A stretch of 64,000 bases of DNA from Thermoplasmatota archaeon (GCA_028279595.1 JANQNK010000001.1:128001-192000), one strand, 5' to 3'; positions 2 to 57,893 are shown, numbered from the stretch's first letter. Notes: a model not told the origin generated them from the letters alone. A program made the numbers and translations.

Positions 2-2038
2 GTCTCCTCCGACGGCGGACCCATCGGCTGGGAGCTCGTAGGGCCTCCATGGCTGTACATCGATCCCGCGACCGGACTCATGTCCGGTACCCCCACGAAC
101 GACGACGTCAACGACACCAACGTGACCATAACCCTCAAGGACGGAAAGGGAGGCAGGGCCACCCACGAGTTCATCCTTCAGGTATTCAACACGGACCCAG
201 TGATCCTGACGGAACCGATCAACACGACGATCGAAGGCCTTCCGTTCGGTCTTGCGCTTAGGTCGACCGACGACGGCGAGAACACCGTCTGGAGGGTCTG
301 GACCGACGCCTACTGGCTGACCTACAACACCACGGTGAACTCAGTCTACGGGACCCCGGGCGAGCTCGTGATAGGCACCTACTACATCAACATGTCAGTG
401 AAGGACGGCTTCGGGGCGTCCGACTACCTCAACTTCACACTCGAGGTGATCAATGCACCCCCGGTCCTCTCGATCCCATACATCCCGCCGCTTCCGGAGG
501 ATGAGCCCTTCGAGGCGATGATCCGGTCCTCGGACCCGGTATCGTTGTGGGAGTTCTCGTCCGACTCGGACTGGCTCGGTTTCAATACTACCAGCGGGAG
601 GCTACACGGCACTCCGGATAACAGCGACGTCGGGACCTGGACCGCCAACGTGACGGCCACCGACGGATACGGTATGTCCGCGTCGGTCGAGCTCACCATC
701 ATCGTCGAGAACACCCCTCCGGACATCACGCCATATCCCCCTCTCGAGTTGGTCGAGGAACAGCTCTACAGGGTCGACTTCAACACGACGGACACCCCGG
801 AGAGCTGGACCTTCGAGGGCCCCTCGTGGCTCACCATCGACGAAGACTCGGGCATCCTCTGGGGCGTTCCGGGGGACGCTGACTTCGGAGCGTTCGAGGT
901 GACGGTCAACGTGTCCGACGGGAACGGCGGATACGCCGAACTGCCCTTCGTGATCGACGTGGAGAACATCAACGACGCCCCCGTCATCGCAGGGACGGAT
1001 GTCCCGGTGACCAATGCCACGGAACCGTACCTGGTGGAATACATCGGAACTGACCCCGACGGCGATACTACAACGTGGGGTCTGGTCACGAACGCCACCT
1101 TCCTCTCCATATCGACCAATGGAACCCTCACGGGCCTCCCGACGAACGACAACGAGGGCGCCTATCCGGTCTCGATCTTCCTCAGGGACCCCTCAGGCAA
1201 CACCACCTGGAGGAACTTCACCCTGATCGTCCTCTACAAGGACCTCGCTCCGACGCTGAACGGCGGCACCGTCACCCCGAACAGCGGTGACACTGACACC
1301 AGGTTCCATTTCACGGTCTGGTACTTCGATCCAGAGGGCGCTCCGCCGGCGAGCATTATGGTGGTGATCGACGGGAAGGAACTGCCGATGAAGTTGAGCG
1401 AGGAGGAGGCATCCAATGGCCTCTACAGGTTCACGACCGATCTGAGCAGGGGTGTACATACCTACTACTTCCGGGCGAACGACGGAACCAGCCAGGCCGA
1501 GGCAACCGGTGGGACCCCGACAGAGACGAACGCCGCGACAGTGGGCGTCAAGAAGGGCGAGGACCTCTCCAACGTGATATTCTACGACATCGTACTCATC
1601 GCCGTCCTCGTTGCGATCCTGGTGATCGCCCTTGGTTATCTGGTTGCACCCGACAGGATGTCGGGGATCCTCGGAAGGGTGATCCCCTCGGGTGGGACCA
1701 AGAGGAAACGTCCGCCAGCGACACCGCCAAGCGAGGACGAGGATGACCCGGACCCCTTCCACAGGCCCAGGCGGGATGTCCCGCCGCCGAGGAGGCGCAC
1801 CGGCGCCGTCAGGCCGATGGTGCGAAGTGATGGACCACCTCCGGATGGTGAGGAAGAGGTCCGAGAGGGATCAGGGGTCCCCGAGGACCCAGGACCGGAG
1901 ATCGGTCCCGAGAGGACGAGGTCCCCTTCGGGGAGTGGACGGGTGGCGGAGCCGATCGAGGAGGACGAGACCGATCCGCTCGACATGGAGGGCGCCGTGG
2001 CCATGAGATACTCCGATCTGCCTAAGAAGCGTCGCTGA
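2..2038 (+). CDS. Cell-surface protein with tandem cadherin-like/putative Ig domains, C-terminal TM helix and Pro/Arg/acidic tail (5' truncated by window)
   Basis: Frame is open from the window start (VSSDGGPIGWELVGPPWLYIDPATGLMSGTP). Repeated units of type WL.....G.L.GTP.N.DVG...V.V...DG.G; hydrophobic segment IVLIAVLVAILVIALGYLV. Confidence 0.8.
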   Translation, partial: VSSDGGPIGWELVGPPWLYIDPATGLMSGTPTNDDVNDTNVTITLKDGKGGRATHEFILQVFNTDPVILTEPINTTIEGLPFGLALRSTDDGENTVWRVWTDAYWLTYNTTVNSVYGTPGELVIGTYYINMSVKDGFGASDYLNFTLEVINAPPVLSIPYIPPLPEDEPFEAMIRSSDPVSLWEFSSDSDWLGFNTTSGRLHGTPDNSDVGTWTANVTATDGYGMSASVELTIIVENTPPDITPYPPLELVEEQLYRVDFNTTDTPESWTFEGPSWLTIDEDSGILWGVPGDADFGAFEVTVNVSDGNGGYAELPFVIDVENINDAPVIAGTDVPVTNATEPYLVEYIGTDPDGDTTTWGLVTNATFLSISTNGTLTGLPTNDNEGAYPVSIFLRDPSGNTTWRNFTLIVLYKDLAPTLNGGTVTPNSGDTDTRFHFTVWYFDPEGAPPASIMVVIDGKELPMKLSEEEASNGLYRFTTDLSRGVHTYYFRANDGTSQAEATGGTPTETNAATVGVKKGEDLSNVIFYDIVLIAVLVAILVIALGYLVAPDRMSGILGRVIPSGGTKRKRPPATPPSEDEDDPDPFHRPRRDVPPPRRRTGAVRPMVRSDGPPPDGEEEVREGSGVPEDPGPEIGPERTRSPSGSGRVAEPIEEDETDPLDMEGAVAMRYSDLPKKRR

Positions 2039-15696: not shown

Positions 15697-15797
15697 AGCA
15701 AAATGCCCCGGTAGTGTCACGGGTGAAGTCCAAGGCCTTCACCCTGCTCGGGCGATCTGATCGCCCTCGAGCGACCTATCATCAGGCCTCGATGATA
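15697..15797 (+). repeat. Partial copy of the tRNA-Asp 5' end interrupted by a 52-nt double-hairpin insert (family A)
   Basis: AGCAaaATGCCCCGGTAGTGT[15718-15769]AGCGaCCTATCATC compared with the gene AGCAatATGCCCCGGTAGTGTAGCGGCCTATCATC. Confidence 0.85.
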
Positions 15798-15817
15798 ACC
15801 GGGTCCATTAGCAATAT

Positions 15818-15890
15818 GCCCCGGTAGTGTAGCGGCCTATCATCTCGGCCTGTCGAGCCGAGGACACGGATTCAAATTCCGTCCGGGGCG
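15818..15890 (+). tRNA. tRNA-Asp (GTC)
   Basis: Cloverleaf GCCCCGG...CCGGGGC-G; anticodon arm TCGGC-CT-GTC-GA-GCCGA; T loop TTCAAAT; CCA not encoded. Confidence 0.97.
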
Positions 15891-15915
15891 CTCTTCCTTC
15901 ATTTTACCTGTAGTC

Positions 15916-16007
15916 GCGCCCCGGACTCTCGTGAAGTTAATCCAACAGATTTCTGCCATTGATATTACAATGTGTACGGTCATAACCTTCACGATCCGTC
16001 CGGGGCG
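15916..16007. repeat. Palindrome with tRNA-Asp 3'-end arms around a TCGTGAAG/CTTCACGA stem (family C)
   Basis: GCGCCCCGGAC-TC-TCGTGAAG-(~50 nt AT-rich)-CTTCACGA-TCC-GTCCGGGGCG. Confidence 0.85.
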
Positions 16008-16010
16008 TTC

Positions 16011-16691: not shown

Positions 16692-16719
16692 CTCGCGGAG
16701 ACGGACGACGCCGATGACA

Positions 16720-18216: not shown

Positions 18217-18267
18217 CCGTCCCTCGGAACGGTGTAGCGGTAATTAAAACTATCCGGTTTTCCGGGC

Positions 18268-18732
18268 TCAGATGAAGGGGCGGACGCTGGGCGATATCCG
18301 GACCTGGTACTTCTGCCCGCCGACCGAGACCGAGAAGATGACCTCCTTCCCCCGGGCCTTCCTCTTCGTCTTGGTCACCTCGTCGATGGGAAGGACCACG
18401 GTCTCCCTGAAACCCTTCTTGGCCCACCCTTTGGCCTGACCCATGAACTTCCGCCTGTCGTCGATCCAGCCGTGGCTCTCCGTCGCATAGGCGGTCATCG
18501 GGGGGATCCTGAGGAAGATGATGCGCCTGTCCGTCCTGTAGAGCTCTCCGGAACCAACGTCAGGGAAGACCATAGTTCCGAACAATCCGCCCCCCTTCGA
18601 GACCTCGCAACCTGCGTCCGTGTCCTGGACGACCACGACCTCGCCCTTCTCGAGGATGGGCACTCCCTTATCGTCGTGGATGCTCCCCAGCGGCTCCTTC
18701 ACGTTGCCGAAGTTGTAGTAGGCGATCTCCAT
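18268..18732 (-). CDS. Hypothetical protein (possible PH-like fold)
   Basis: 154-aa ORF with host-like codon usage, co-directional with neighbours; GELYRTDRRIIF resembles PH/GRAM-like motifs. Confidence 0.55.
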   Translation of the reverse strand: MEIAYYNFGNVKEPLGSIHDDKGVPILEKGEVVVVQDTDAGCEVSKGGGLFGTMVFPDVGSGELYRTDRRIIFLRIPPMTAYATESHGWIDDRRKFMGQAKGWAKKGFRETVVLPIDEVTKTKRKARGKEVIFSVSVGGQKYQVRISPSVRPFI

Positions 18733-18738
18733 GGGGGT

Positions 18739-22356: not shown

Positions 22357-22399
22357 GGAACATCGCCAGCCCATTTAAACCACGGATTGGATATATAAT

Positions 22400-24442
22400 T
22401 TACTGTTTGATATTGTGAATCCGGCGCCAATTCCGCCTTGACCATTCTATTGCAGCACGCGCCGTCGCGGGTCCCATGTGGGGAAGCCCCTCGATATCGG
22501 CCATCTGCGCCTCCCCCAGCGCCTGCAGGTCTCGGTATCCAGCACCGTACAGTACCCGGCCCCTTCTCCGACCGATCCCGGGTACCCGCATGAGCGGGAG
22601 CAACTCCCGTTTGACCCCGCTCGCGAGCCTTCTCGAGACCTCGCGGGCCGCCTCGCCGACACCCTTGTCCTCGAGGGCCGCTATCTCGGAGTATGCACCA
22701 CCCAGCCAAGCGGCCGTCTCCCTCAGGTTGTGCAGGTCGCCTGGACCTATGCCGAACGTCTCGGTGATCTGCGCCTCCGGCATCTCCTCGATCCATGCCA
22801 TGAGGACGGCGGCGGTCCTGATCGCGTCGTCGTGGTCCTCCGCCGGAACGAGCGGCGTCAGCCAGTCGGTCTCCTCCGTGAACCTGTCGATGTCGTCGGT
22901 GTCCTTTCGCGCTGAAAGCCGGTACATGTCCGGACACGATGCTATGGCCATCAGGTGGTGGAACGCCCCCTCCGGCATGACGGCCACCGCCTGGCGGAAT
23001 AGGACCGCGCTGGCCGGATCGACGTAGACCCGGGAGGTGATCACTCCGAGGTCCGTCGGCCTTATCCCCTCCTCGATGTCGATGAACTCGCCCTCCTCGA
23101 GCATCTCGAGGGTGTGCTCGAGGGCGCTCTCCATGGTCCACAGGTCGGTGGTGTGGGCATAGTATGTATTCGAAAGGAAGTCCTCGATGTCGGCCTCCGA
23201 CCGGCATTCCCCCGTCGCTATGGCCGCTAGGATGTGAACCCTCATGGCCCTCGGGTCGAGGAGCTTCGAGGTTATGGGCTCGACCTCGCCGAGGATGTAG
23301 GCATCGACGGCCTTCCGGGCAGCCCTGTCGTTGCCTGCCACGATCACAGCCTCACCGTGGGGGTCCAGTCCCGGTCGGCCGGCACGCCCCATCATCTGGC
23401 GTATCTCCAGCACCGGGATGTCGGTCATTCCGACACCTCGCTCGAACCGCCTCGTGGTCAGGACGAGTACCCTTCTCGCGGGCAGGTTTATCCCGGCGGC
23501 CAGGGTCGGCGTGGCGAAGAGGACCTTGACGGAACCCTCGCGGAAGGCCGTCTCGACGATCCTCCTCATCTCGCTGCCGAGTCCTGCGTGGTGGAATCCT
23601 GCCCCTCCCTTCATCGCTGCTGTCAATGACTTTCCGATCTCGCCCCAGTCCTCATCGGGTTCGATCGCCGGACCGGATATTCCGAGGGTGGCGCCGAAGG
23701 ACGATGCGTTCTTCGCCGCCTCCTTCCGGCTTCTCGTGAAGACAAGGACCTGTCCGCCCTCGGCGACGGTCTCCCCGACCATGTCCTCCCACCCGGGGCC
23801 CGGTTTCCTCGTCTCACCGTCGATGAAATCGAGAACGCCCTTGGTGAAGACCCCCTCGCGCAATCTGACGGGTCGCCAGTCCGACGTGACCAGCTTCGCA
23901 TCGAGCCACAGGGCGATCCCCATTGCATTTCCGACGGTCGCCGAGAGTGCGACAATCTGGACGCCCCGCCGCTTCATCATCGCCAGGACGATCTCGAGGG
24001 TCGGTCCCCGCCGTTGGTCGGTGATCAGATGGACCTCGTCCGCGATGCATACGCCGACCTCGTCGAAGAAATCGTTGCCATGACGGAGGAGGGCGTCCGC
24101 CTTCTCGGAAGTTACTACGACCACATCGTTGTCCTTCAACGCCCTGTCGTCCGTCGACAGGTCGCCTGTGGAGATGCCCACCTTATACTCGGGAAGGACC
24201 GTCTTGAGGTCCTCGTACTTCTCCGCAGCCAGGGCTCTGAGGGGCACGATGTACAGACCCTTCCTCCCCGACCTAAGGCCGTTGAGGAGCGCCGCGTATG
24301 CGACGAGGCTCTTCCCGGCCGCCGTCGGCACGCTCACGAGGACGCTGCGACCCTCCAAGACATGAGGGATCGCCTCCTCCTGGGGCGGATAGAGGCTCTC
24401 TATGCCCATCCGCTCGAGCATGGGTCCGAGGACGTCGTCCAT
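22400..24442 (-). CDS. hel308: Ski2-like DNA helicase Hel308/Hjm
   Basis: LYPPQ, PTAAGKS, VPLRALA, DEVH, LSAT, HHAGL, TPTLAAGINLPA, QMMGRAGRPG, C-terminal HhH. Start placed at MDDVLG. Confidence 0.92.
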   Translation of the reverse strand: MDDVLGPMLERMGIESLYPPQEEAIPHVLEGRSVLVSVPTAAGKSLVAYAALLNGLRSGRKGLYIVPLRALAAEKYEDLKTVLPEYKVGISTGDLSTDDRALKDNDVVVVTSEKADALLRHGNDFFDEVGVCIADEVHLITDQRRGPTLEIVLAMMKRRGVQIVALSATVGNAMGIALWLDAKLVTSDWRPVRLREGVFTKGVLDFIDGETRKPGPGWEDMVGETVAEGGQVLVFTRSRKEAAKNASSFGATLGISGPAIEPDEDWGEIGKSLTAAMKGGAGFHHAGLGSEMRRIVETAFREGSVKVLFATPTLAAGINLPARRVLVLTTRRFERGVGMTDIPVLEIRQMMGRAGRPGLDPHGEAVIVAGNDRAARKAVDAYILGEVEPITSKLLDPRAMRVHILAAIATGECRSEADIEDFLSNTYYAHTTDLWTMESALEHTLEMLEEGEFIDIEEGIRPTDLGVITSRVYVDPASAVLFRQAVAVMPEGAFHHLMAIASCPDMYRLSARKDTDDIDRFTEETDWLTPLVPAEDHDDAIRTAAVLMAWIEEMPEAQITETFGIGPGDLHNLRETAAWLGGAYSEIAALEDKGVGEAAREVSRRLASGVKRELLPLMRVPGIGRRRGRVLYGAGYRDLQALGEAQMADIEGLPHMGPATARAAIEWSRRNWRRIHNIKQ

Positions 24443-24568
24443 GGGCGGCCAAGGCCCAGAGGGTTCAAAAGCATTCCCTGTAGGGGTCGGTGAAATTGCT
24501 TTCTTCCGGATGGTAGGTTCCGGACCTGTAGTATAAACGACGGGTGACATGGGAATATCGGTGAGGAT

Positions 24569-25060
24569 GTGAGGCGAACCCTCGACGAGCTGATAGACAG
24601 TGTGCTCGAGAACGAGACCAGGCGCAGGATATACATGCACCTGCTGAGGACCCCGGGAGACCACTACCGCGGGATCATGAGAGCAGTGGGGATCGGCAAC
24701 GGCAACCTGTCGTACCACATGCAGGTGATGGAGAAGGCGAGGACAGTGAAGGTCCGGAGGACCCCGGGACGGACGAGGTACTATCCCGCCGAGATCAACC
24801 CAGGACCAGTCCAGAATGACCTGAGGCGGTCACTGATGTTCACGATCGCAACGTCACCCGGGGTCACTGACCGAAATCTGTCGGTCAAGTTCGAGCGTTC
24901 TGTAAGATGGATACGGGAGAACCTTGTCATCCTTGAAGATTCAGACCTCATCGGGATAACAAGAGGCAGAGCGACCTGGAGATGTTTCCTACAGGTGCCA
25001 GAGGAGAACGTTTTCTCGATGAATCCGAGTGGGCTGTTGCATTCACCGACTGGAATATAG
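24569..25060 (+). CDS. Tandem winged-helix transcription regulator (ArsR-like)
   Basis: LENETRRRIYMHL..TPG.HY..I......GNGNLSYHM.V; second unit I...PG.T...LS. Confidence 0.75.
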   Translation: MRRTLDELIDSVLENETRRRIYMHLLRTPGDHYRGIMRAVGIGNGNLSYHMQVMEKARTVKVRRTPGRTRYYPAEINPGPVQNDLRRSLMFTIATSPGVTDRNLSVKFERSVRWIRENLVILEDSDLIGITRGRATWRCFLQVPEENVFSMNPSGLLHSPTGI

Positions 25061-25062
25061 AA

Positions 25063-25117
25063 GCGGACCCGCGGGGATTCGCGCAGCAGATGCTTCGCAT
25101 CAGCGCGGTTCGCGAAC
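25063..25117 (-). repeat. Partial copy of the tRNA-Arg 3' end with a GATGC/GCATC hairpin at the T loop (family B)
   Basis: 19 nt (25063-25081) identical to 25210-25228, then hairpin GATGC-TTC-GCATC, then GGTTC and GCGAAC. Confidence 0.85.
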
Positions 25118-25210
25118 AGATTGAGAGATTATTGCCAGCCAGTTCACGAACAACCCTATTGGAGAGCGGGTTCTCAATCGCGGGACCTCTAATTTACGTA
25201 TGAAAATAGG

Positions 25211-25284
25211 CGGACCCGCGGGGATTCGAACCCCGGACATCCAGCTTAGAAGGCTGGCGCCCTATCCAGCTAGGCCACGGGCCC
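25211..25284 (-). tRNA. tRNA-Arg (TCT)
   Basis: GGGCCCG...CGGGTCC-G; anticodon arm CCAGC-CT-TCT-AA-GCTGG; GTTCGAATC. Confidence 0.97.
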
Positions 25285-25379
25285 ATTACAGCAAAGTGAT
25301 ATTAAAGGCATATTATAAGTTACCTCTCCAGAACCGAACCTTTATTATAGCCGACCCTTTTGACCGCTCAGGTGAGACA

Positions 25380-25853
25380 TTGACTGAGACCATCGAAGCA
25401 CTCGTCGAGGGAGGCAAGGCTACTCCCGGTCCGCCCCTGGGTCCGGCACTCGGTCCGCTGGGAGTGAACATCGGCGAGATCATCAAGACGATCAACGAGA
25501 AGACGAAGGACTTCGACGGGATGAAGGTGCCCGTCAAGGTGAAGGTCAACCCCAAGACCAAGGCGTTCGAGATATCCATCGGAACGCCGCCCGTCAGCGC
25601 TCTCGTTCTCGCGGAGATCGGGATCGACAAGGGCTCGGGCGCCAGGCTCGACTCGGTCGCGGGAAACCTGACCATCGAACAGGCGGCGAAGATCGCGCGG
25701 ATGAAGACGGACTCCCTCCTCGGCAACGACATGAAGGCGAGGGTGAAGGAGGTCGTCGGGTCCTGCGTGTCCATGGGCGTCACCGTCGAGGGCAGGGACC
25801 CGAAGGCCGCCATCAAGGCGATCGATGCCGGCGACCTCATCGTGCCCGAGTGA
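25380..25853 (+). CDS. rpl11: 50S ribosomal protein L11 (uL11)
   Basis: GGKATPGPPLGPALGPLGVN, GTPPVSAL, GSCVSMGVTVEG; TTG start after GGTGA. Confidence 0.96.
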   Translation: MTETIEALVEGGKATPGPPLGPALGPLGVNIGEIIKTINEKTKDFDGMKVPVKVKVNPKTKAFEISIGTPPVSALVLAEIGIDKGSGARLDSVAGNLTIEQAAKIARMKTDSLLGNDMKARVKEVVGSCVSMGVTVEGRDPKAAIKAIDAGDLIVPE

Positions 25854-25984
25854 GCTGTCGCGACGATCACGACGGCCCTGCGGGGTTCGACGACCGACGT
25901 GGTGCGGACCGGACATCGTCGTTTGTCGTTACACGTTATACAAAAGATACTTATAGGGCACCTTGTTAGGGAAAACCCCACACT

Positions 25985-26719
25985 GTGATGCCAATGATCC
26001 AGGGGGTAATAGGAAACTTCGAGTGGACACCAGTCTCGATACTCTCGCTCCTAGGCCAGGTACTTGCAGTGCTGTTCGTCGTGATAGGCGCCGTTCTCCT
26101 GTTCTCCCTGGTCATCGGATACCGGGCCTACAGGAGGGGAAAGGTCCGGATGCCCGGCCCCATCCTCCTCGTGATCGATATCTTCTACACCCCGTTGAAG
26201 AAGCTCCTCAAGGTCTTCCGGAAGGACCCGAGGGTCGTCGACGACATCTCGATCGTCCTCCGCAACCACGTCAACATGGAGAACTACGCGATCACCAAGC
26301 CGGAGGAGCGCGTCGTCCTCGTACCGCAGTGCCTCCGGCACACCCGGTGCCCCGCGCCGATGAGCTCGGAGGACGGATTCACCTGCAGGGTCTGCGGTCT
26401 CTGCGACATTGCGAAGATTTATAAAGTGGGAAACGCAATCGGGACAGAGGTCTACATTGCGCCCGGGGGCAGATTCGCTAAGAGGATTCTCTCTCGGTCC
26501 AAACATGGGGGCAAAAAGGCTGTACTCGGTGTAGCCTGCCATACCGATCTATATGAGGGCCTTCTCGCGGCGAAGATAGGGGATATCCCTGCACAGGGGG
26601 TGCCCTTGAAGACCGAGGGGTGCGTGGCGACCAAAGTCGACATCGACAGGGTAATAGACATGATGCTCGTGGGACTGAACGCGGAAGAGACCGATCGGGT
26701 CAGGGAGTTGGTGGCGTGA
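25985..26719 (+). CDS. DUF116 family membrane protein (Cys-rich)
   Basis: N-terminal TM; PQCLR...C.....G..C..CG.C.I, GVAC..DL..G, PL...GC..T.VD. Confidence 0.8.
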   Translation: MMPMIQGVIGNFEWTPVSILSLLGQVLAVLFVVIGAVLLFSLVIGYRAYRRGKVRMPGPILLVIDIFYTPLKKLLKVFRKDPRVVDDISIVLRNHVNMENYAITKPEERVVLVPQCLRHTRCPAPMSSEDGFTCRVCGLCDIAKIYKVGNAIGTEVYIAPGGRFAKRILSRSKHGGKKAVLGVACHTDLYEGLLAAKIGDIPAQGVPLKTEGCVATKVDIDRVIDMMLVGLNAEETDRVRELVA

Positions 26720-27450
26720 TACTGCCTGCAAGTCCCTACTTCTGGCTCTCCGTCATCACCATCGGTGCCACTGCGACGTTCTTCTCGCTGATCGGTTTCG
26801 CACTGTTCGTTGGCAAGCGAAACATCGACAGGGACAGGAAGAGCTTCCCGAAGTTCACCCTGGCGATCATCACCACGTTCTACAATCCCATCCGTCTCCT
26901 CCTGAGGAAGTTCGGAAAGGACGACCGCATCGTCCAGCGGATCGGCGTCGACCTCTACAACCACCTCGCAGAGGAACGGTACTCCAAGGTCCCGGCGGGC
27001 GAGAGGATCGTCGTGATCCCGCACTGTCTGAGGGACATCAACTGTCCGGCGAAGACCGACCCCATCGCAGGTATATTGTGCGTGAAGTGCAACAAGTGCG
27101 GCATCGGCCCGTTCATTACGAAGGCCGAGGAGCACGGGGTCAAGACCTACGTGGTCAACGGGTCCTCCTTCGTGAAGAGGGTCGTGATCCATTACCAACC
27201 AAAGGGCGTATACGGTGTTGCATGCACGAGGGACCTCTTCGAGGTCGAGCACGCCATCAACTCGAGGGGCATCCCGATGGTGGGCAACCTCCTGATGAGG
27301 GACGGCTGCGTGGGGACCGACGTCGACTGGGATTCCGCAATGAAGAAGTTCACCATCGGACTGCCTCCCATCCCGAGCGAGATGGCCGAGGCGGCTCCGG
27401 AGACTCCTGCCGTCGAGCCGGCAACGGCCGAGACCGAGGCAGAGGCCTGA
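26716..27450 (+). CDS. DUF116 family membrane protein (paralogue)
   Basis: GTG start overlapping the upstream TGA; PHCLR...CPA......C.KC.KC.I, GVAC.RDL, L..DGC..T.VD. Confidence 0.8.
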   Translation: MILPASPYFWLSVITIGATATFFSLIGFALFVGKRNIDRDRKSFPKFTLAIITTFYNPIRLLLRKFGKDDRIVQRIGVDLYNHLAEERYSKVPAGERIVVIPHCLRDINCPAKTDPIAGILCVKCNKCGIGPFITKAEEHGVKTYVVNGSSFVKRVVIHYQPKGVYGVACTRDLFEVEHAINSRGIPMVGNLLMRDGCVGTDVDWDSAMKKFTIGLPPIPSEMAEAAPETPAVEPATAETEAEA

Positions 27451-27589
27451 TAACGATCGACCAACATATCACTGGAAGATTTTCCCCGGGCTTTTCAGCA
27501 TGTGCTATCTCGGGCCATGTCTCCGGAACGTACCATTACTTCCTGTGGAGACTGGGTCATACTGACAAATCAAGACTGGCTCATCGGGA

Positions 27590-29263
27590 CTAGAACTCGC
27601 CCCTTTCCTTCACGAGCTCCATGGTCCTGTCGTACAACGGGACAGCCTCATTCTCTATCTCCTCCGCTCGTGAGAGAAGCTCGGACGAGACCGTTTCGTC
27701 GACGATCTCCTTGACATTGATCCTCACGTTGAGTCCCGCGCATCTCACCGCGGCAAGCCCCATTATCGCTGCTGAACCGGCGTCGCTGAGCGCACCAGGG
27801 TTCCCGACGACGGCGACCTTATCGGCCAGCCTCATCATCTCGAGGGCCCTCTCCATGGTCTCGAGGGGGACCTTCGCCGCTCCGACGTACGCCTTCTGGA
27901 CCGCTTCGTCCCTTGCGGCGATCTCCTCGTTGGTCTTCTTCTTCATCCTGAAGGCGGCCATGACGTCATTGAAGGCCTCGGTGTCGATATCCACGAGGGC
28001 GATCATTCTCGCCTGAAGGGCCTGGGCCTCGTCCCCCAGTGCTGCCATCTCGACCATGTGGTCCTCCATGCCCTTCTTCCTGTGGGTGAGAGTGGCGACC
28101 ATGGATGTCAGACCGGCGCCCATAGCGCCTGCGAGGGAAGCGACGCTTCCACCACCGGGGGCGGGCGACTCGCGTGAGAGCTCGTCCACGAAGTCATGGA
28201 CCGTCATGGCGGTCAGGTTCTCCTCAGCCGTTATAAGCTCGATAATCCTCTCTTCGGGGACGAACGACGAGAACTCGTTCAACCCCATGGATGTGATCGC
28301 CATTTCGATGAGGTCGCTGTCCGGGACGCCGGTGGTCTTCCCCTGCTTCTCGAGGTAGTACCGTCCGGCCTCGATCATCGGTTCGAGGGGGACGAGTCCG
28401 ATTATCTCGCTCCCAGTGATGCGGACACCTATCTTCTCCGCCTCCTCGACGCACGTCTCGAAGACCACGTGGAGGGGGGTGACCTTGTAGTTTATGAGAT
28501 TGATGGAGACCTGTGCGCGCGAGTACTCATCGATGAACCATCCAATGGCCTTCACCGCCTTGAGGCGGCCAGGCTTCTTGATGGCGACACCGTCGTCGTC
28601 CCTGACGATCTCGCCGGCCTCGTCACGGAGCGCCCTTCCGCGCTCCCTGATCTCGAAGGCGATCTCCCTGGCGTGCTTCGTGTCGGTCGAATTGACATTC
28701 ACGTTGTAGGCGATCAGGAACTCGCGGGCTCCCATGACCGTCGCACCGCTCTTCGCAACCTTGTCGTCGAAGGTCTTGGGTCCGTAGTCGGGAACCCATT
28801 CGGCATCGCCCATCTTGGCCTCGAGCCCCTCGTACTGCCCCTTCCTCACCTCGGCGAGGTTCTTCCTGTGGGGAGCGCTTGCCGATGATTCGTAGAGATA
28901 GACGGGAATGCCCTCCGCACCGACACGCTCGCCGACGCGCTTCGATATCCCGATGCAGTCCTCCATGGTCGCGCCGGATACCGGCACGAACGGGCAGACG
29001 TCGGTCGCTCCCATCCTCGGGTGGGCTCCCTCGTGGACCGACATGTCGATGAGCTCCGAGGCCCGGACGATCATCCTGTACGCAGCTTCCTCCACTCCCT
29101 CGGGTGGACCGATGAACGTGACGACTGTCCTGTTGGTGGCGTCTCCGATCTCGATATCGAGCACCTTCACGCCCTCGACCGACGATATCGTGGCAACGAT
29201 GTCGTCAATGACGTCCTTGTTCCGTCCCTCGCTGAAGTTCGGCACGCATTCCACGAGCGCCAT
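27590..29263 (-). CDS. ftcD: Glutamate formiminotransferase / formiminotetrahydrofolate cyclodeaminase
   Basis: LVECVPNFSEGR, NRTVVT, GAHPRMGATDVCPF, GAREFLIAYN, SPAPGGGS. Confidence 0.95.
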   Translation of the reverse strand: MALVECVPNFSEGRNKDVIDDIVATISSVEGVKVLDIEIGDATNRTVVTFIGPPEGVEEAAYRMIVRASELIDMSVHEGAHPRMGATDVCPFVPVSGATMEDCIGISKRVGERVGAEGIPVYLYESSASAPHRKNLAEVRKGQYEGLEAKMGDAEWVPDYGPKTFDDKVAKSGATVMGAREFLIAYNVNVNSTDTKHAREIAFEIRERGRALRDEAGEIVRDDDGVAIKKPGRLKAVKAIGWFIDEYSRAQVSINLINYKVTPLHVVFETCVEEAEKIGVRITGSEIIGLVPLEPMIEAGRYYLEKQGKTTGVPDSDLIEMAITSMGLNEFSSFVPEERIIELITAEENLTAMTVHDFVDELSRESPAPGGGSVASLAGAMGAGLTSMVATLTHRKKGMEDHMVEMAALGDEAQALQARMIALVDIDTEAFNDVMAAFRMKKKTNEEIAARDEAVQKAYVGAAKVPLETMERALEMMRLADKVAVVGNPGALSDAGSAAIMGLAAVRCAGLNVRINVKEIVDETVSSELLSRAEEIENEAVPLYDRTMELVKERGEF

Positions 29264-29409
29264 GGGGTATCACCGGCGCTCGATACATGGGTTCGCTATT
29301 TAACCGTTTCCAAACAGCCCCAAGGACGGATCGGGGGTACTGGGTCCTCCAGATGGCTCTGAAGAGCGGGAACAGTCAGGTTTTTATCCCATCAGCCGGC
29401 TTCGAGGTC

Positions 29410-29643
29410 ATGGAGACAGACTACTGGGTATACTCCGACGTCATTCGGAAGCGCTCTACGGTGCATACCGGGAGATGCCCCTACTGCAACAAGGGCCGCG
29501 GTTTCCACCACCTTGTCTCCGGCCGCACCGGCGGCGAGTGGAGCGGTCCGTTCTTCACGATCGAAGAAGCGAACGACTTCGCCTCCGGGCTTGAGAGCCC
29601 TGTTCATCTCTGCACTCACTGCATGAAAGAGATCGAGCAGTGA
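29410..29643 (+). CDS. Small putative zinc-binding protein
   Basis: H-x3-C-x2-C, WSGPF and C-x2-C; GAGGT upstream of ATG. Confidence 0.6.
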   Translation: METDYWVYSDVIRKRSTVHTGRCPYCNKGRGFHHLVSGRTGGEWSGPFFTIEEANDFASGLESPVHLCTHCMKEIEQ

Positions 29644-29803
29644 GCGAACGAGATCTGTTCTCATTTCGTGAAAGAGGACGCGCTGGACGACGATCCAGGT
29701 CAGGTCGTCGACACATCTCACCATGGCCGGTCATTGGAAAAGGTCATTACCCGACCCACATCCTTATCTATTTGAAACCTTATCATTAGGCCCCGTTGAT
29801 ACG

Positions 29804-31411
29804 ATGAAATATATTGTGGTCACGGGCGGTGTTTTGTCTGGCCTTGGCAAGGGTATACTCGCTTCATCGATAGGTCTGCTCCTGAAGAGCTGCGGGTTGA
29901 CGGTGACCGCGGTCAAGATCGATCCATATCTCAACTGCGACGCTGGTACGATGAACCCCTACCAGCACGGCGAGGTCTACGTGATGGACGACGGCGGCGA
30001 GGTTGACCTCGACCTCGGCAACTACGAGCGGTTCCTGGACATCAGCATGGGCAGGGACAACAATATCACGACCGGAAAGGCGTACCTCAATGTCATCCAG
30101 AAGGAGAGGAAGGGCGACTACCTCGGCCACACGGTCCAGATCATCCCCCACGTCACGAACGAGATCCGCGAGATGATATTCAACGTCGGCAAGGAGTCCG
30201 GCGCGGATGCGATGATAATCGAGCTCGGCGGGACCGTGGGCGACATCGAGTCCATGCCCTTCGTCGAGGCCCTCCGCCAGATGAGGTCGGAACTGAAGCG
30301 CGAGGACATAATCTTCGTCCACACGACCCTGGTCCCTGTGATGGGCGTGGTCGGGGAACAGAAGACGAAGCCCACCCAGCACAGCGTGAAGACCCTCATG
30401 TCCCTGGGAATTCATCCGGACATGGTCGGCGCCCGGTGCACCGATCCGCTGGCCACGGAGACCAGGAGGAAGATATCCCTGTTCTGCGACGTTCCCGACG
30501 AGGCCGTGTTGAGCGTCCACGACGTCGAGAACATTCACGAGGTGCCCCTCCTCCTGGAGGACCAGGGGGTCACAGATTACGTCAAGAGGTTCCTCCACCT
30601 GGACATACCCGAACCCGACCTCGAGAAGTGGGCCGAGTACGTGGACATCCTCAAGAACGCTGAACAGACCGTAAGGATCGCTCTCATCGGGAAGTATACC
30701 CATCTGAAGGACTCCTACATCAGCCACATGAAGGCCCTGAACCACGCGGGTGTGGAGAACGGCGTCAAACTCGACTTCCACTGGGTGGAGGCGGGGGATC
30801 TGGAGAAGTCGGGTGACACCTCCGTCCTTGACGGATGCGACGGGATCCTCGTCCCAGGCGGGTTCGGCTATCGCGGCGCCGAGGGGAAGATGCTGGCGAT
30901 CCAGTATTCCCGGGAGAACAACATCCCCTACCTGGGCCTGTGCTTCGGGATGCAGCTGGCGGTCATCGAGTTCGCACGGAACGTCGTTGGATGGGAGGAT
31001 GCGACGAGCGGCGAGTTCGTCGAAGAGTTCGGGATCGAATCTGAGCACAGGGTGATAGACCTCATGCCCGAACAGAACGGGATCGACGAGATGGGAGCCA
31101 CCATGCGGCTGGGAGCCCAGAACGTCTATCTGAAGGAGGGGACCATGGTCCACGGCCTGTACGGTTCCACAGAGATATCCGAACGCCACAGGCACAGGTA
31201 CGAGGTGACGCCGGAGTACATACCCGCCATCGAGGGGGCCGGGATGTTGTTCTCGGGGAACGATGGAGGGATCAGGATGGAGTGTGTCGAGATACCCGGC
31301 CACCCCTTCTTCCTGGCGACCCAGTTCCATCCGGAGTTCAAATCCCGTCCGTGGGGCGCATCGCCGCCGTTCAAGGGATTCGTTAGAGCGGCCAAGGAGA
31401 GGACAGGATGA
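29804..31411 (+). CDS. pyrG: CTP synthase
   Basis: [63 protein letters not shown]. Confidence 0.98.
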
Positions 31412-31791
31412 CGGTAAAGAAGGTTTCCGTCGAGATCGAGGGGGACCATTTCATAGGAACGGACGAATTCGGTTCCATCCGTCTGGATTATTTCGAGAAG
31501 GGGATCACGCCGATCAAAGCTCTGATGGCGTCGGCCGCCACCTGTAGCATCATGGACATCAAACAGGTCCTAGGGAAGCGCAAGGTCGAGTACTCGGTGT
31601 TGAAGGCTGACGTGGAGGCCGTGAAGGAGGACGATCCCGCAAGGCTGACGAAGCTTCACATCATTTTCACGACCGACGCCCCGCTGACGGAGATGGAGCG
31701 GGCTGTCAAGCTCTCGATCGATAGGTACTGCACTGTTGTGAACACTATCAAGGGCGTCACCGATGTGACGACCGAGATCATCATTGTATGA
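31408..31791 (+). CDS. OsmC family protein
   Basis: [14 protein letters not shown] ... RAVKLS.DRYCTV. Confidence 0.88.
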
Positions 31792-32718
31792 TCAGGGTAG
31801 AACGGACCCTGGCATCTTTCCGTCCTTGGTCAATACGACGACCCTCGATTCTGGCTTCTCCTTTGCAATGACGTAGCCGGTGGCGTCCTCCATCCTACGG
31901 GCGAAGTCCCTCACCTCGTCCTGCGACGGCATGTTGTCAATCGTCATCCTCATCCTCGAGTACCCGACAAAGACGTATCCCTTGGCCTCGATGAAGTCCG
32001 GCTCCGCCATCGCGACGAGCCTGGCAAAGCCGTCGACATCGGTCATGTTCCAGCCCCTGACCAGCGTGTGCCTTACGACGGTCCTCGTGTCCAGGGACGG
32101 CATGATCGCGAGGCTCTCGACGATCCGGTCCCAGAGGCCTGGCTCCATAGGCTTGCAGAGGTTACCGTAGACCTCCTCGTTGGGTGCGTCCACGGATATG
32201 TAGAGCTGCGACGGGAGGTCGTCCATAGATGACAGGACGTCAGGTCTGGTGCCGTTCGTCACCAGGAACGTCGTCATCCCACGGCTCCTGGCCAGTCCGA
32301 TGAACTCTCCGAGATGCGGATACAGGGTGGGTTCACCCGCGAGAGATATCGCTATCTGGTTCGGCTCCCTCGACTCGTGCCACATGGCCTCTTCCACCGT
32401 CTCGATCCCCCGGTAGCCGGAGACCAATCGCGCCTGTGCCTCGATCGCACCGTCGAGGATGGACTCCGGATCGTCGGGAACGATATCCTCGGCCTTCCCG
32501 CCGTGATACCTCCAACAGTAGGTGCATTTCTGGTTGCAGTCGAGCCAGGGGGTCATCTGCAGGCACCTGTGGCACTCGATCCCGTAGAAATCCTCCTTGT
32601 AACATGAACGGCCCTTCATCAGCTTCTGCCTGAGCCAGTGGCATAATTTCACAGCGGAGTGTTGGCCGACAAGTCCGTAGCCCTGCTTCTCGAGGACCTC
32701 CCTGAGGCGGTCGTTCAT
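31792..32718 (-). CDS. taw1: 4-demethylwyosine synthase Taw1/TYW1 (radical SAM)
   Basis: HSAVKLCHW, CYKEDFYGIECHRCLQMTP, CNQKCTYCWR, AISLAGEPT. Confidence 0.95.
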   Translation of the reverse strand: MNDRLREVLEKQGYGLVGQHSAVKLCHWLRQKLMKGRSCYKEDFYGIECHRCLQMTPWLDCNQKCTYCWRYHGGKAEDIVPDDPESILDGAIEAQARLVSGYRGIETVEEAMWHESREPNQIAISLAGEPTLYPHLGEFIGLARSRGMTTFLVTNGTRPDVLSSMDDLPSQLYISVDAPNEEVYGNLCKPMEPGLWDRIVESLAIMPSLDTRTVVRHTLVRGWNMTDVDGFARLVAMAEPDFIEAKGYVFVGYSRMRMTIDNMPSQDEVRDFARRMEDATGYVIAKEKPESRVVVLTKDGKMPGSVLP

Positions 32719-33152
32719 ACGGGCCTCTCCATCGCGTACGCGTCCTCACCGCTGGTGTAGTAGTGCTGGAGGAGTCCCCTGATGTCGAAGCCGTGATGCT
32801 GGTAGAACTGTATGGCGGTCTTGTTGGTTATCCTGACCTCGAGGATGATCCGCTTGGCGCTTCGACCGATCGCCTCGCGCATGAACGCCTTCATCAGCAT
32901 CGTGCCGACGCCCTTCCGCCGGTAGGACGGATGCACCGAAAGCATCAGGAGACGGGCGCTCCCGTCCTCGTTCATGGCTCCCAGGGCGAACCCGACGATC
33001 CTCTTCCCCCTCTCGAGGACCAGGAACGCCTCTGGCCAGTGTTTCGCAAGCTGGAGGTACACGCTCGGATCGTAGTTCTCACCGAGCGTCTTCCCCACTA
33101 TGCCCATGACCTGGCCGAGGTCCTCCTTCGAGAACCGCCGCATGCGGTACAT
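32715..33152 (-). CDS. RimI/Ard1-like N-acetyltransferase
   Basis: SVHPSYRRKGVG, LEVRITN..A..FY...GF, YY..GEDAY.M. Confidence 0.88.
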   Translation of the reverse strand: MYRMRRFSKEDLGQVMGIVGKTLGENYDPSVYLQLAKHWPEAFLVLERGKRIVGFALGAMNEDGSARLLMLSVHPSYRRKGVGTMLMKAFMREAIGRSAKRIILEVRITNKTAIQFYQHHGFDIRGLLQHYYTSGEDAYAMERPV

Positions 33153-33251
33153 CGGTTGGAGCATTCCCGGAGGGGATATAAACAATTTGGAAGACATGTT
33201 CCGAACCCGTTCGGCGGAGGCTCTTTATCGGAACCCTGTCTAGTGACGACC

Positions 33252-34106
33252 ATGACCGCCTCCAAGCAAAGGGTCTGCGGCGTCAAGAGGACGATCGAGG
33301 GGATGACAGTCCACGACGGAGCCGGCGTCCGTCTCAACAGGATCATCGCGTCCCCGCAGCTGAACCATGTCGATCCATTCGTGCTCCTGGACGAGTTCAG
33401 GAGCGACGATCCGAACGATTACATCAAGGGATTCCCCTGGCACCCCCATCGCGGTATCGAGACCGTGACCTACATGGTCCACGGGAGGTTCAAGCACGAG
33501 GACTCCCGGGGCGGCGGCGGAACCCTCTCATCCGGCGATGTCCAGTGGATGACCGCGGGAAAGGGGATCCTCCACCAGGAGATGCCCGGCCAGACCGACG
33601 GGAGCATGTGGGGATACCAGCTATGGTTGACCCTTCCGAAAGCGGACAAGATGGTTGAGCCTAGGTATCAGCATTTATCCTCCGAGGACATCCCCGTGGT
33701 GAATGAAGGAGATGTCGAAGTGAGGATAATATCCGGCGAGTTCAACGGTTCCATCGGACCGGCGCAAACCTGGTTCCCGATATCATACTTCGACGTCAGG
33801 CTCCCTGATGGGGCGGCCTTCCATCATCACCCGAAGCCAGGTATGAACTTCCTCGTTTACGTACACACGGGATCTGTGGTGATTGGAAGCGGTGATGGCG
33901 CTTCCGAGATCCCGATGGGAGGTCTGGCAATACTCGATGACGGGATCGAGGTCCACGCCACTGGTGGTTCGGAGAAGAACGGATTCCTCTTCCTCGCTGG
34001 CAAGCCATTGAACGAGCCGATCGCCCGGGGCGGACCGTTCGTAATGAACACACCCGAGGAGATCGAGCAGGCATGGAAGGACTTCTACGATGGGAACCTG
34101 TTCTAA
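33252..34106 (+). CDS. Pirin family protein
   Basis: DPFVLLDEF, GFPWHPHRGIETVTY, VQWMTAG.GI.H.E, GPFVMNT. Confidence 0.95.
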   Translation: MTASKQRVCGVKRTIEGMTVHDGAGVRLNRIIASPQLNHVDPFVLLDEFRSDDPNDYIKGFPWHPHRGIETVTYMVHGRFKHEDSRGGGGTLSSGDVQWMTAGKGILHQEMPGQTDGSMWGYQLWLTLPKADKMVEPRYQHLSSEDIPVVNEGDVEVRIISGEFNGSIGPAQTWFPISYFDVRLPDGAAFHHHPKPGMNFLVYVHTGSVVIGSGDGASEIPMGGLAILDDGIEVHATGGSEKNGFLFLAGKPLNEPIARGGPFVMNTPEEIEQAWKDFYDGNLF

Positions 34107-34120
34107 TGGATGGTGATGTG

Positions 34121-34684
34121 ATGGAATACTTTCACGACGAGAAGAACATCCAGGAATACATCGGGATGGCAGAGGGATTCGATGGCCGCGAGCTCATCGA
34201 GATACTGAAGGGACACCTGGAACCCGGCTCCACGGTGCTCGAACTAGGGATGGGCCCTGGAAAGGACCTCGAGATCCTCGGAGAGAGGTATTCGGTGACA
34301 GGTTCGGACTATTCCAGGCCCTTCATCGACCGGTACAGGAGGATCGACCCCGATGCCGACCTGTTGCTCCTGGACGCATGTACCCTGGAGACGGACCGGA
34401 CCTTCGATTGCATCTATTCCAACAAGGTCCTGATGCACCTCCAGAGGGATGAGATGAAGGCTTCCATTGAAAGACAGGCAGACCTTCTGAACGACGGGGG
34501 ATTGCTGTTCCACTCATTCTGGAAAGGGGATAGCGAGGAGACGAAGCGGGGGGTGCACTTCGTCTACTACGAATCCCAGCACCTATTCGAGATGATCGAG
34601 GACCTTTACGACGTCATCGAGATCGAGACATACACCGAGTTCGAAGAGGACGACTCCATCTATCTAATTGCCCGGAAGAGATGA
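34121..34684 (+). CDS. Class I SAM-dependent methyltransferase
   Basis: VLELGMGPG motif I; FD.IYSNKVL.H. Confidence 0.88.
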   Translation: MEYFHDEKNIQEYIGMAEGFDGRELIEILKGHLEPGSTVLELGMGPGKDLEILGERYSVTGSDYSRPFIDRYRRIDPDADLLLLDACTLETDRTFDCIYSNKVLMHLQRDEMKASIERQADLLNDGGLLFHSFWKGDSEETKRGVHFVYYESQHLFEMIEDLYDVIEIETYTEFEEDDSIYLIARKR

Positions 34685-34745
34685 GATCACAAATCCATCC
34701 ACCTCCATGAGTCGGTCTTATTAGGAAACGACCACATGGGGTCCC

Positions 34746-35501
34746 ATGGACCTTCAGATCACGGACGTCACTCCCGACAATGTCGACAAGGAGGGCTTCT
34801 TCTGCTACATGAGCAAGAGGAAGACTCCCGGATTCCAGAAGAAACTTGGATGGGTGAAGGCCAGGCTCGCTGAGGGTATGAGGATCAAGATCTCGCTAAA
34901 GGACAGCCGGTCCTTCATCGAATACATACCGGGCGAGCATTGCTGGCGTGCCATCGAGGCCGACGGCTACATGGTCGTGCACTGCATCTGGGTCGTGGGA
35001 AAGAAGAGACACGGGCAAGGTCACGGATCATACCTTCTGAATGAATGCATAAAGGATGCCAGGTCCAACGGAATGAAGGGCGTCGCTGCCGTAACGAGCA
35101 AAGGAACCTGGCTTGCCGAAAAGGGCCTATACGAGAGGAATGGGTTCGAATCCGTCGAGAAGGCAGATCCCTCATTCGATCTCATGGCCCTCAGGTTCGG
35201 TGACGACCCCCTCCCGAGGTTCGCCGGTGATTGGGATAGCAAGGCCGCCCAGTTCGGATCCGGATTCACTGTTCTGAGGACTGACCAGTGTCCATACATC
35301 GAGGACACGGTCGCTCCGGTCGTCGAGACGGCCGAAGAGCTCGGTGTGGACTGCAACGTCGTAGAGATTAGGAGCAGGAAGGAGGTCATGGAGAAGATGC
35401 CCTATCCATATGGAACGTTCTCCATCGTGTACGACGGGAAGCCGTTCAGCTATCACTATCTCCTGAAGAAGGGCATACTGAAACGCCTTGAAGGATTCTA
35501 A
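34746..35501 (+). CDS. GNAT acetyltransferase with YoaP-like C-terminal domain
   Basis: FIEYIPGE.CWR, HCIWV....GQGHG, QCPY, P.P...FS..YDG. Confidence 0.8.
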   Translation: MDLQITDVTPDNVDKEGFFCYMSKRKTPGFQKKLGWVKARLAEGMRIKISLKDSRSFIEYIPGEHCWRAIEADGYMVVHCIWVVGKKRHGQGHGSYLLNECIKDARSNGMKGVAAVTSKGTWLAEKGLYERNGFESVEKADPSFDLMALRFGDDPLPRFAGDWDSKAAQFGSGFTVLRTDQCPYIEDTVAPVVETAEELGVDCNVVEIRSRKEVMEKMPYPYGTFSIVYDGKPFSYHYLLKKGILKRLEGF

Positions 35502-35503
35502 AC

Positions 35504-35708
35504 GGTACTGACTTCCGGATCCGTGAAAAAGGCTGTGGTCCCGACTCCCGGATCGGTGAAAAAGGCTGCTGGATAAAATCGCGATTTTCACCGAGAGGGA
35601 GCCGCATCACGATATTCCTGAACATCGTCGAGGTGACAGCGACCGGATCCACGAAAAAGGGATTCGGAGACCTATAATTCTATTTCGTGGAGAGGGAGTT
35701 GGGACCAC
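35504..35708. repeat. Array of tRNA-Tyr 3'-end copies joined to GAAA/TTTC stems (family C; two full units and one partial)
   Basis: 19 nt (35535-35553) identical to 35733-35751; stems TCGGTGAAAA/TTTTCACCGA and TCCACGAAA/TTTCGTGGA, each followed by GA and an inverted tRNA end. Confidence 0.85.
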
Positions 35709-35733
35709 GTCACTTTGAGAGTAATAAGAAAAG

Positions 35734-35840
35734 TGGTCCCGACTCCCGGATTTGAACCGGGGACCTGCCGGTCTCGGCAGCATGGCAGAGAGCCAATGGA
35801 TCTACAGCCGGCCGCTCTAGCCAGTCTGAGCTAAGTCGGG
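35734..35840 (-). tRNA. tRNA-Tyr (GTA) with 29-nt intron at 37/38 (35773-35801) and encoded CCA
   Basis: CCCGACT...AGTCGGG-A-CCA; GCCGG-CT-GTA-G[intron]A-CCGGC; GTTCAAATC. Confidence 0.93.
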
Positions 35841-35898
35841 ACTAATGCGGAAAAGAAGGAATGCCATATAAATATCTTTCATAGACGGCCGGCCGCCG

Positions 35899-36010
35899 CC
35901 CGCTCTACGAGGGAACGTGAGTTCCCGAGCACGCACATCCGTAGGGTGTGCTGTGGCCAGTCTGATCTAAGTCGGGACCCAAGCGGTAAAGAAGGAATGC
36001 CAAATGAATA
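35899..36010 (-). repeat. Partial copy of the tRNA-Tyr 5' end and upstream region interrupted by a 48-nt double-hairpin insert (family A)
   Basis: CCCGACTTAGaTCAGACTGGC[35955-35908]TAGAGCGG; upstream flank also duplicated (GCGG.AAAGAAGGAATGCCA). Confidence 0.85.
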
Positions 36011-57880: not shown

Positions 57881-57893
57881 GCGAGGGGAAGAT

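Follow-up and report, generated by a model that had tools for sequence, protein, structure and literature searches.

CTXphi integrates as a forked hairpin, attP(+), in which two inverted dif-like sites lie ~90 nt apart and flank an unequal unpaired centre (PMC3089051; PMC3442271). The host recombinase makes a single strand exchange, and the chromosome is left with a functional target, a mirror site, a ~90-nt loop and a direct site (PMC3089051). The attC sites of integrons likewise fold for IntI, and integrons are found in Archaea too (PMC4792948; PMC9668308). Behind the tRNA and rRNA genes of E. coli lie the TLRs, short non-coding and often tandem units whose end is identical to the last 18–19 nt of the upstream gene; they are transcribed, and their function is largely unknown (PMC8144298).

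The units studied here, designated family C, lie behind tRNA genes in a 64,000-nt stretch of DNA from a Thermoplasmatota archaeon, hereafter called the window. Read in the tRNA sense, a unit is ordered as tail X1, a T-rich trailer of ~24 nt, a mirror tail X′, TC, a stem-loop-stem with arms S, TCC, and a spare tail X2. As in attP(+) of CTXphi and in IMEX, inverted copies of the target fold to a duplex mimic with an unpaired centre, and no recombinase is encoded. The differences are that the target is dif there and a tRNA 3′ end here, that the only cargo of the units is the trailer, that their unpaired centre is just 2–3 nt, that each unit is matched to a different tRNA, and that for the units neither a phage or rolling-circle source of single-stranded DNA nor an enzyme is known. 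With integron attC sites, the units share conservation of structure over sequence, imperfect palindromes with unpaired bases and a variable loop of 19–50 nt, as well as arrays that are bracketed by direct repeats of the crossover core and stacked beside a fixed site; they nevertheless lack the R″/R′ core motifs (RYYYAAC/GTTRRRY), an adjacent intI-type integrase, attI and ORFs, and their outer arms are tRNA-specific tails.

Resemblance to other systems is more limited in scope. Tyrosine-integrase elements and CIMEs also show a direct tail repeat from the T-loop, an element-borne tail and tandem accretion, and they coexist with the units at sites of the same genome, but the units carry no integrase, measure 66–116 nt, and possess a mirror tail and a covarying hairpin. 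TLRs share the identity between the 3′ end of the unit and that of the upstream tRNA; however, they come from bacteria, no relation to the units is seen in sequence or Rfam, and a mirror copy with a closing stem is not described as a TLR hallmark. REP/REPIN-RAYT and IS200/IS605 systems similarly comprise small hairpins outside genes that are assumed to work as single strands, whereas the units are solely tRNA-linked with tRNA-specific arms, and no Y1 transposase was detected in two of the three genomes of the class. A MITE or IS identity would call for a target-site duplication and a transposase-bearing parent, and neither was found, Y1 and serine enzymes having been scanned. Searches of Rfam, of plasmid, phage and viral collections and of the literature returned no description of such units. 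What is added here is the family C alignment with its covariation, an orthologous Asp unit, the integrase-distal placement, the nested breakpoint at TCC, the negative outcomes for strand bias, a CCA mirror, Y1 transposases and serine recombinases, and the comparison with CTXphi and attC. We tentatively propose, at a probability of roughly 0.4, that family C comprises the minimal members of a lineage-specific set of gene-less, non-autonomous site-specific insertion modules, whose hairpin rebuilds the duplex tRNA-gene target.

Anatomy of the units in the window

Four tRNA genes, for Asp, Arg, Tyr and Gly, are found in the window by ARAGORN and Rfam (Table 1). The archaeon's own genome (G000) was obtained from a coral metagenome and comprises 2.29 Mb in 21 contigs (86% complete). 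Its class is represented in the collection by three genomes, the other two being G001, which is of another genus and the sole other genome of the same family in this collection (73% complete), and G002.

Table 1. Positions of tRNA genes, units and integrase genes. Coordinates are those of the window unless a contig (C) of G000 is given; sequences are in the tRNA sense.
Feature	Position	Strand	Remarks
tRNA-Asp(GTC)	15818-15890	+	ARAGORN, Rfam, sequence reading
Asp tail X1	15878-15890	+	TCCGTCCGGGGCG; 13 nt: T-stem 3′ strand, acceptor 3′ strand and discriminator
Asp trailer	15892-15915	+	24 nt, T-rich, terminator-like (TTTT)
Asp mirror tail X′	15916-15926	+	GCGCCCCGGAC; TC follows
Asp stem arms	15929-15936/15987-15994	+	TCGTGAAG/CTTCACGA; 50-nt loop between
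Asp spare tail X2	15998-16007	+	GTCCGGGGCG; directly after TCC
Asp family C hairpin, whole	15916-16007	+	Fold z -7.0; model R1 match 39.7 bits
tRNA-Arg	25209-25284	-	Gene search, Rfam
tRNA-Tyr(GTA)	35734-35840	-	Intron present, CCA gene-encoded; gene search, Rfam
Tyr proximal-unit trailer	35709-35733	-	25 nt
Tyr proximal unit	35640-35708	-	Sequence reading, fold, alignment
Tyr proximal mirror tail	35694-35708	-	14/15 match; mirrors ACCA and 1 genomic nt
Tyr proximal stems	35683-35691/35648-35656	-	Inner stem
Tyr proximal spare tail	~35640-35647	-	Decayed
Tyr distal unit	35536-35605	-	Sequence reading, fold, alignment
Tyr distal mirror	35597-35605	-	Decayed
Tyr distal stems	35585-35594/35553-35562	-	
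Tyr distal spare tail	35536-35553	-	18 nt, perfect
Tyr partial duplicate	35503-35535	-	33 nt: 3′ stem arm, TCC and decayed tail
tRNA-Gly	58190-58263	-	Gene search, Rfam
Gly subtype-C2 module	57893-57969	-	Distal to the ~150-nt other-family module 58031-58189 behind tRNA-Gly
Gly spare tail	57893-57904	-	
Gly stems	57905-57915/57935-57945	-	Loop carries CTCGTCAAT (sense)
Gly extra hairpin	57950-57969	-	
tRNA-Pro-ggg array	C7:44400-44982		Locus L146; two tandem ~146-nt units
Tyrosine-integrase gene, Leu-gag	C1:10181		
Tyrosine-integrase gene, Leu-caa	C5:29163		
Tyrosine-integrase gene, Pro-tgg	C7:7564		Element of 14.5 kb
Tyrosine-integrase gene, Ala	C9:44417-44923		Element of 10.2 kb
Tyrosine-integrase gene, Arg-tcg	C14:112430		
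Tyrosine-integrase gene, Trp	C19:195876		Element of 8.7 kb

All four stems that had been predicted at Asp, Tyr (two) and Gly were located on reading of the sequence, and the Asp and Tyr units are positioned between convergent genes. Family C units, at 66–116 nt, contain no ORFs. Direct tail repeats flank each unit; they begin at A59/T60 (..ATCC) and have a length of, for instance, 18 nt at Tyr and 13 nt at Asp. The bases complemented by X′ are the discriminator and two of the T-stem, and no target-site duplication was seen outside X′..X in the Asp, Tyr and other units read. T-rich runs of T3–T6 (up to T6 in G002) occur in the trailers, between tRNA and hairpin, and trailers at other tRNAs are similar to the Asp trailer in length and composition; no T-run follows the hairpins.

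An asymmetric GGA/GA internal loop had been described for Asp and Tyr. The loop is real and common to both, but GGA is not a motif of its own: it is the start of the 3′ strand of the tRNA T-stem (TCC in sense), where the homology of the spare tail begins, and the mirror copy breaks off at the GA opposite (TC in sense). Alignment confirmed the tandem amplification at Tyr, including the 33-nt partial duplicate, of which ~27/32 positions are identical to the 3′ half of the distal unit. The stems at Gly are present as well, but the Gly unit represents a distinct related subtype (C2) with an extra hairpin and a mirror arm elsewhere, and its CTCGTCAAT loop motif recurs in the trailer hairpin of the same module.

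When folded as single-stranded DNA, the Asp unit reaches −23 to −24 kcal/mol vs about −9 to −10 for shuffled sequences (z −7.0 and −5.7 for the two strands). The corresponding z values are −2.0 and −2.9 for the Tyr distal unit, −3.4 and −3.5 for Gly, and −0.6 for the Tyr proximal unit, which folds weakly because its spare tail has decayed, its inner stem alone being solid.

Several further features were noted around these units. In subtype-C2 units a motif, (C)TCGTCAAT / TTACGTCAAT, occupies two hairpin loops per module, one in the trailer hairpin and one in the final hairpin. It is found at 57916-57934 and 58012-58020 in the window, at C14:117640-117800 of G000 and at many G002 loci (L194-L222); it is conserved between G000 and G002 and may be a protein-binding site. 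Modules of ~150 nt belonging to another family lie behind tRNA-Arg (25064-25208) and tRNA-Gly (58031-58189); they share a common core (..GAACCCGCTCTC..) and a GATGC-nnn-GCATC hairpin beside the spare tail, and each starts with an imperfect mirror tail. Spare copies of tRNA 5′ starts are present upstream of tRNA-Asp (15703-15817) and tRNA-Tyr (35908-35990), the latter including ~45 nt of leader or promoter-proximal sequence, and form a front-end counterpart of the tail modules. The partial duplicate of the Tyr array is abutted by the stop codon of a 251-aa ORF (34746-35501, + strand), whose best relatives in metagenome and genome contigs (44–56% identity) are, among named records, almost all from bacterial MAGs (Chloroflexota, Gemmatimonadota and others), so that the ORF was probably acquired horizontally.

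Spread and covariation of family C

Searching all 45 tRNAs of G000 found a mirror of the tRNA's own tail at +10..60 in 15, vs 1.75 expected, and a direct tail copy at +50..350 in 23, vs 10.5 expected, where the expectation comes from other tRNAs' tails searched for in these regions. The modules fall into several families that follow one plan, i.e. tail, trailer, mirror tail, hairpins and spare tail, and are often stacked two to four deep; family C, with one hairpin, is the simplest. Its further members in G000 lie at Glu (two units), Arg-ccg, Met, Ala, Pro-tgg, Trp and Pro-ggg, and one more is nested in a larger module behind Thr-cgt. Units at unrelated tRNAs have a loop core in common (GTTAAT..ACAGAT..TTCTTAAGC) and similar trailers, and a covariance model built from five units (R1) gave 12 matches in G000, all 12 within tRNA-linked arrays. 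By these resemblances, units at different tRNAs share common descent.

Similar arrangements were found in the other genomes of the class. Direct tail copies follow 13/26 tRNAs in G001 and 21/30 in G002, and each of the three genomes has simple hairpin units. One and the same tRNA can be followed by different unit types in different genomes, as at Tyr and Val-tac, a pattern that speaks for turnover and against a single ancient fixation; arrays are also stacked, and some tandem copies are nearly identical, e.g. at Asp and Tyr of G001. In five genomes of other Thermoplasmatota families, modules were seen at 3/33 sampled tRNAs, and a close look-alike behind a tRNA-Arg (G018) is composed of a 23-nt trailer, mirror, TC, stem-loop-stem, CC and tail. 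The unpaired TC/TCC centre characterizes most simple units of the three genomes as well as this look-alike, and is replaced by TGG/TCC in a Glu/Arg/Trp subtype. The exact Asp tail...mirror pattern was recovered from G000 alone among 401 Thermoplasmatota genomes, exact matching having missed the G001 copy, which has one mismatch. No exact match to the family C core pattern or to the conserved hairpin of the larger modules was found in viral contigs, and BLAST returned no plasmid match for the Tyr array and no phage match for the Asp unit. Together with the Rfam search and the scans for PF01797 and PF00239, this gave no relation to an IS or transposase; membership in a known IS family is what the original prediction had named as speaking against it.

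To evaluate pairing in the family, 13 units of the three genomes were fitted to the model and aligned. Paired cells made up 85.4%, vs 64.8% in shuffled alignments, changes on both sides were found in 16/20 pairs, and the covariation score was 0.525 vs 0.158, a value reached by none of 500 shuffles; sliding the partners by 1–3 columns lowered pairing to 30–46%. Covariation of the outer stem derives in part from both arms tracking the tRNA. The inner stem is free of that constraint, and five of its nine pairs show two to eight double changes each, while stem arms swapped between units pair at only 60 ± 16%. The compensatory changes that had been perceived from the few stems in the window were thus upheld, with strong covariation, in a larger alignment. 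They also extend to an orthologue: behind tRNA-Asp of G001 lie two or more family C units in tandem, and their stem (TCGCGATG/CATCGCGA) differs from that of G000 by two compensatory double substitutions, with TC/TCC kept and the loop diverged.

With respect to the strand, wobble (G.U-type) pairs in the minimum-energy folds of the two strands number 154 vs 154 over all units and ~28 vs 23 in family C. Hence the reading of the structures antisense to the tRNA gained no special support, and an asymmetry of G.T vs A.C, suggested by five sequences, did not generalize, with the exception of the top-of-stem pair, which is T.G in 9/13 units, unpaired in the rest and never Watson-Crick. The loop core of simple units points the same way with respect to the tRNA throughout the three genomes. 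If either strand is favoured, these two features would point to the tRNA-sense strand. As to which tail X′ tracks better, X1 and X2 came out equal (13 vs 13), and X2 is without the discriminator in several units.

Such covariation is compatible with RNA as well. The units might be transcribed by read-through from the tRNA, like the E. coli TLRs, with the X′/X stem and hairpin serving as a signal for processing or stability, as a small RNA, or as a means of trapping read-through pre-tRNA, an explanation that we consider unlikely. The tail-identity rule is that of TLRs (PMC8144298) and the Asp unit is kept between genera, but loops are poorly conserved among orthologues, and X′ pairs with the discriminator and beyond, so it is not a faithful mimic of the acceptor stem; X2, moreover, often lacks the discriminator. 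The invariant T.G wobble and the fixed loop orientation would suit a transcript, yet wobble pairs in general show no strand bias. The T-rich trailers are also placed between the tRNA and the hairpin. In archaeal termination, T-rich runs should stop most transcripts. Rfam 15 at the gathering score recovered only the four tRNAs in the window and no unit match, RtT included, and a role at the RNA level would leave unexplained the nested insertions with short duplications described below.

Docking point, integrase elements and the mirror tail

G000 encodes seven tyrosine recombinases (PF00589), six of which adjoin tRNA genes; the seventh (C3:20846-21331) lies away from tRNA genes, and its length and resemblance to the sole G002 gene mark it as Xer-like. 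Six tRNA-linked integrases amount to a heavy element load for a 2.3-Mb genome, and the Leu-gag and Leu-caa elements are close copies of one another. The Ala, Pro-tgg and Trp elements possess 18-nt tail repeats that start in the T-loop, 1–4 nt further 5′ than the repeats of the units; these elements use nearly the same docking point as the units. Immediately beyond the distal repeat of each of the three elements lies a family C unit. The units therefore predate these three elements of 8.7–14.5 kb. Mirror tail and S hairpin are absent from the ends of the three elements, and in the Ala element the integrase gene abuts attR.

These elements raise the possibility that the units are passive scars, i.e. 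internally deleted double-stranded integrase elements (CIME-like) that accreted in tandem and are inactive. The six integrase elements in tRNA genes of G000, of which the three with ends read share the sublocation, would provide a source, and the stacked arrays and the lack of genes would fit accretion. Scars, however, would not have a conserved hairpin core in common at ~20 tRNAs of three genomes, nor would compensatory change have kept their stems, and the intact elements read bear none of the two hallmarks at their ends; G002, in addition, has many units and a single tyrosine recombinase, which is Xer-like. We regard this origin as quite improbable.

Among the three recombinase families scanned (PF01797, PF00589 and PF00239, with DDE transposases outside the scan), only tyrosine recombinases appeared as candidates, and none has been linked to the units. 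PF00589 genes occur in separate 8.7–14.5 kb elements or elsewhere, never inside units, and none was detected in G001 (73% complete). The Y1 transposase (PF01797) was found in neither G000 (86% complete) nor G001 (73% complete), and G002 has one. A serine recombinase as partner was rejected, as PF00239 was not detected in five unit-bearing genomes.

The docking point of the units is marked by nested insertions. Two larger modules, at Pro-ggg and Thr-cgt, carry a subtype-C2 core within their own spare tail. In the Pro-ggg array, the two units agree up to ..GAATCTCG, after which unit 2 has an insert of 65 nt and TCTCG a second time before its tail resumes, so that the nested insertion amounts to 70 nt with TCTCG at both sides. 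The same nested pattern is seen at Thr-cgt with TCCC duplicated. To within ~1 base, the insertion point coincides with the TCC at which tRNA identity starts and with the stop of the mirror copy, and in the folded unit it is the unpaired TC/TCC centre between the two helices.

The mirror tail itself retains traces of its template. At Asp, Glu and Arg-ccg, whose genes do not encode CCA, TGG is absent from X′, and the Tyr mirror covers ACCA and one further genomic base. Both observations indicate a template in place, either DNA or pre-tRNA, and not a mature tRNA. Priming of reverse transcription by a mature tRNA, with the mirror resembling a PBS, was ruled out on the same two observations. Two further candidates were discarded: X′ complements the discriminator and T-stem rather than the D-arm side, and so is not a tRNA 5′ half or pseudo-tRNA, and on inspection of the fold the 2×3 loop is not a bulge-helix-bulge intron motif. 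Between the Pro-ggg tandem units, moreover, a hairpin loop of 3 nt is exactly inverted (GAAGC-TCC-GCTTC vs GAAGC-GGA-GCTTC), a sequence signature of template switching across an extruded hairpin. This flip suggests that hairpins are extruded during replication, and, speculatively, extrusion could feed correction from arm to arm.

A purely local origin is conceivable on this basis, in that template switching or fold-back synthesis at busy tRNA genes would create palindromes, which would then be kept as bidirectional terminators or insulators. Consistent with this are the flipped Pro-ggg loop (TCC to GGA), the extent of X′ one base past the tRNA end with no TGG if CCA is not encoded, and the location of the Asp and Tyr units between convergent genes; but no T-run follows the hairpins, and homologous loop cores and trailers recur at many unrelated tRNAs in three genomes. 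This similarity of cores within a genome suggests spread between loci, and we hold a local origin to be very unlikely. Least probable of all is a single-strand 'peel and paste' route of the IS200/IS605, REPIN or PATE kind, in which a Y1 HUH transposase would read the hairpin and X′ would be the guide: the units are small, gene-less, extragenic hairpins, and their order of target, ~24-nt linker, guide and hairpin foot is like that of the IS608 left end (target, linker, guide and hairpin foot), but PF01797 was not detected in G000 and G001, with one copy in G002, there is no conserved tetranucleotide such as the REP GTAG, and a guide of 11–15 Watson-Crick nt would contrast with the known guides of 4 nt.

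A proposed route of insertion

The original prediction offered a protein-recognised ssDNA or RNA structure, and this remains the most reasonable class of explanation. Its alternative, a trailer affecting tRNA 3′ processing, gained no support, and the T-rich, terminator-like trailer separates tRNA and hairpin. For the proposed insertion modules, the following route may be envisaged. The module would dock inside the tRNA gene at the junction of T-loop and T-stem (the TCC point) and bring a replacement tail (X1) together with its T-rich, terminator-like trailer, so that the tRNA gene would stay intact, and the original tail would be displaced downstream as X2. The attachment site would be a fold-back: in the single-stranded state X′ would pair with the tail copy and the S arms with each other, giving two duplex arms that flank an unpaired TC/TCC centre, and the hairpin would thereby reproduce the tRNA-gene target in duplex form. 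Strands might be exchanged at TCC by a tyrosine recombinase acting in trans, for which the Xer-like enzyme or the resident tRNA-targeting integrases are candidates.

We infer the single-stranded intermediate, the enzyme and the exact crossover from this architecture. DNA stiffness makes 66–116 nt too small for a likely double-stranded circle, and unit size would accordingly favour a single strand. Of the sequencing runs, the probable source run, a coral metagenome, was the only one found to contain this DNA, and no RNA run did; one of its contigs spans 15862-35849, with no indel or joint at the units. No empty/filled-site polymorphism, circle or ssDNA intermediate was observed in the source assembly, the only one with this DNA, which shows no variants. 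Several findings count against insertion: G001 has units but no detected tyrosine recombinase; close cores occur at many tRNAs, each with matching X′ and X; the absence of wobble strand bias leaves an attC-type strand selectivity unsupported; X2 lacks the discriminator in several units, which a displaced original tail should keep; and an unpaired centre of only 2–3 nt is far shorter than known central regions.

A more far-reaching version of the same proposal is that the units constitute a new minimal kind of mobile DNA, in which protein-less 'attachment-hairpin' modules of ~70–160 nt would move as folded single strands, hijack a host or resident tyrosine recombinase by displaying a duplex likeness of a tRNA gene's 3′ end, and have their arms re-tailored for each tRNA. 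This we put forward with clear reserve. If active, such units would be among the smallest site-specific mobile elements known and would provide a natural instance of a DNA site which, when folded, copies its target, and, since one conserved core carries matching arms for ~20 tRNAs, they could reveal templated retargeting.

The units matter also for the annotation of tRNA loci and integration sites in uncultured lineages. On five contigs of G001 (C20, C81, C124, C189 and C190; loci L168-L193), many tRNA genes are no more than a few hundred bases from a contig end, and one G001 contig ends inside a tandem family C unit. The modules thus seem to break short-read assemblies at tRNA genes in these archaea.
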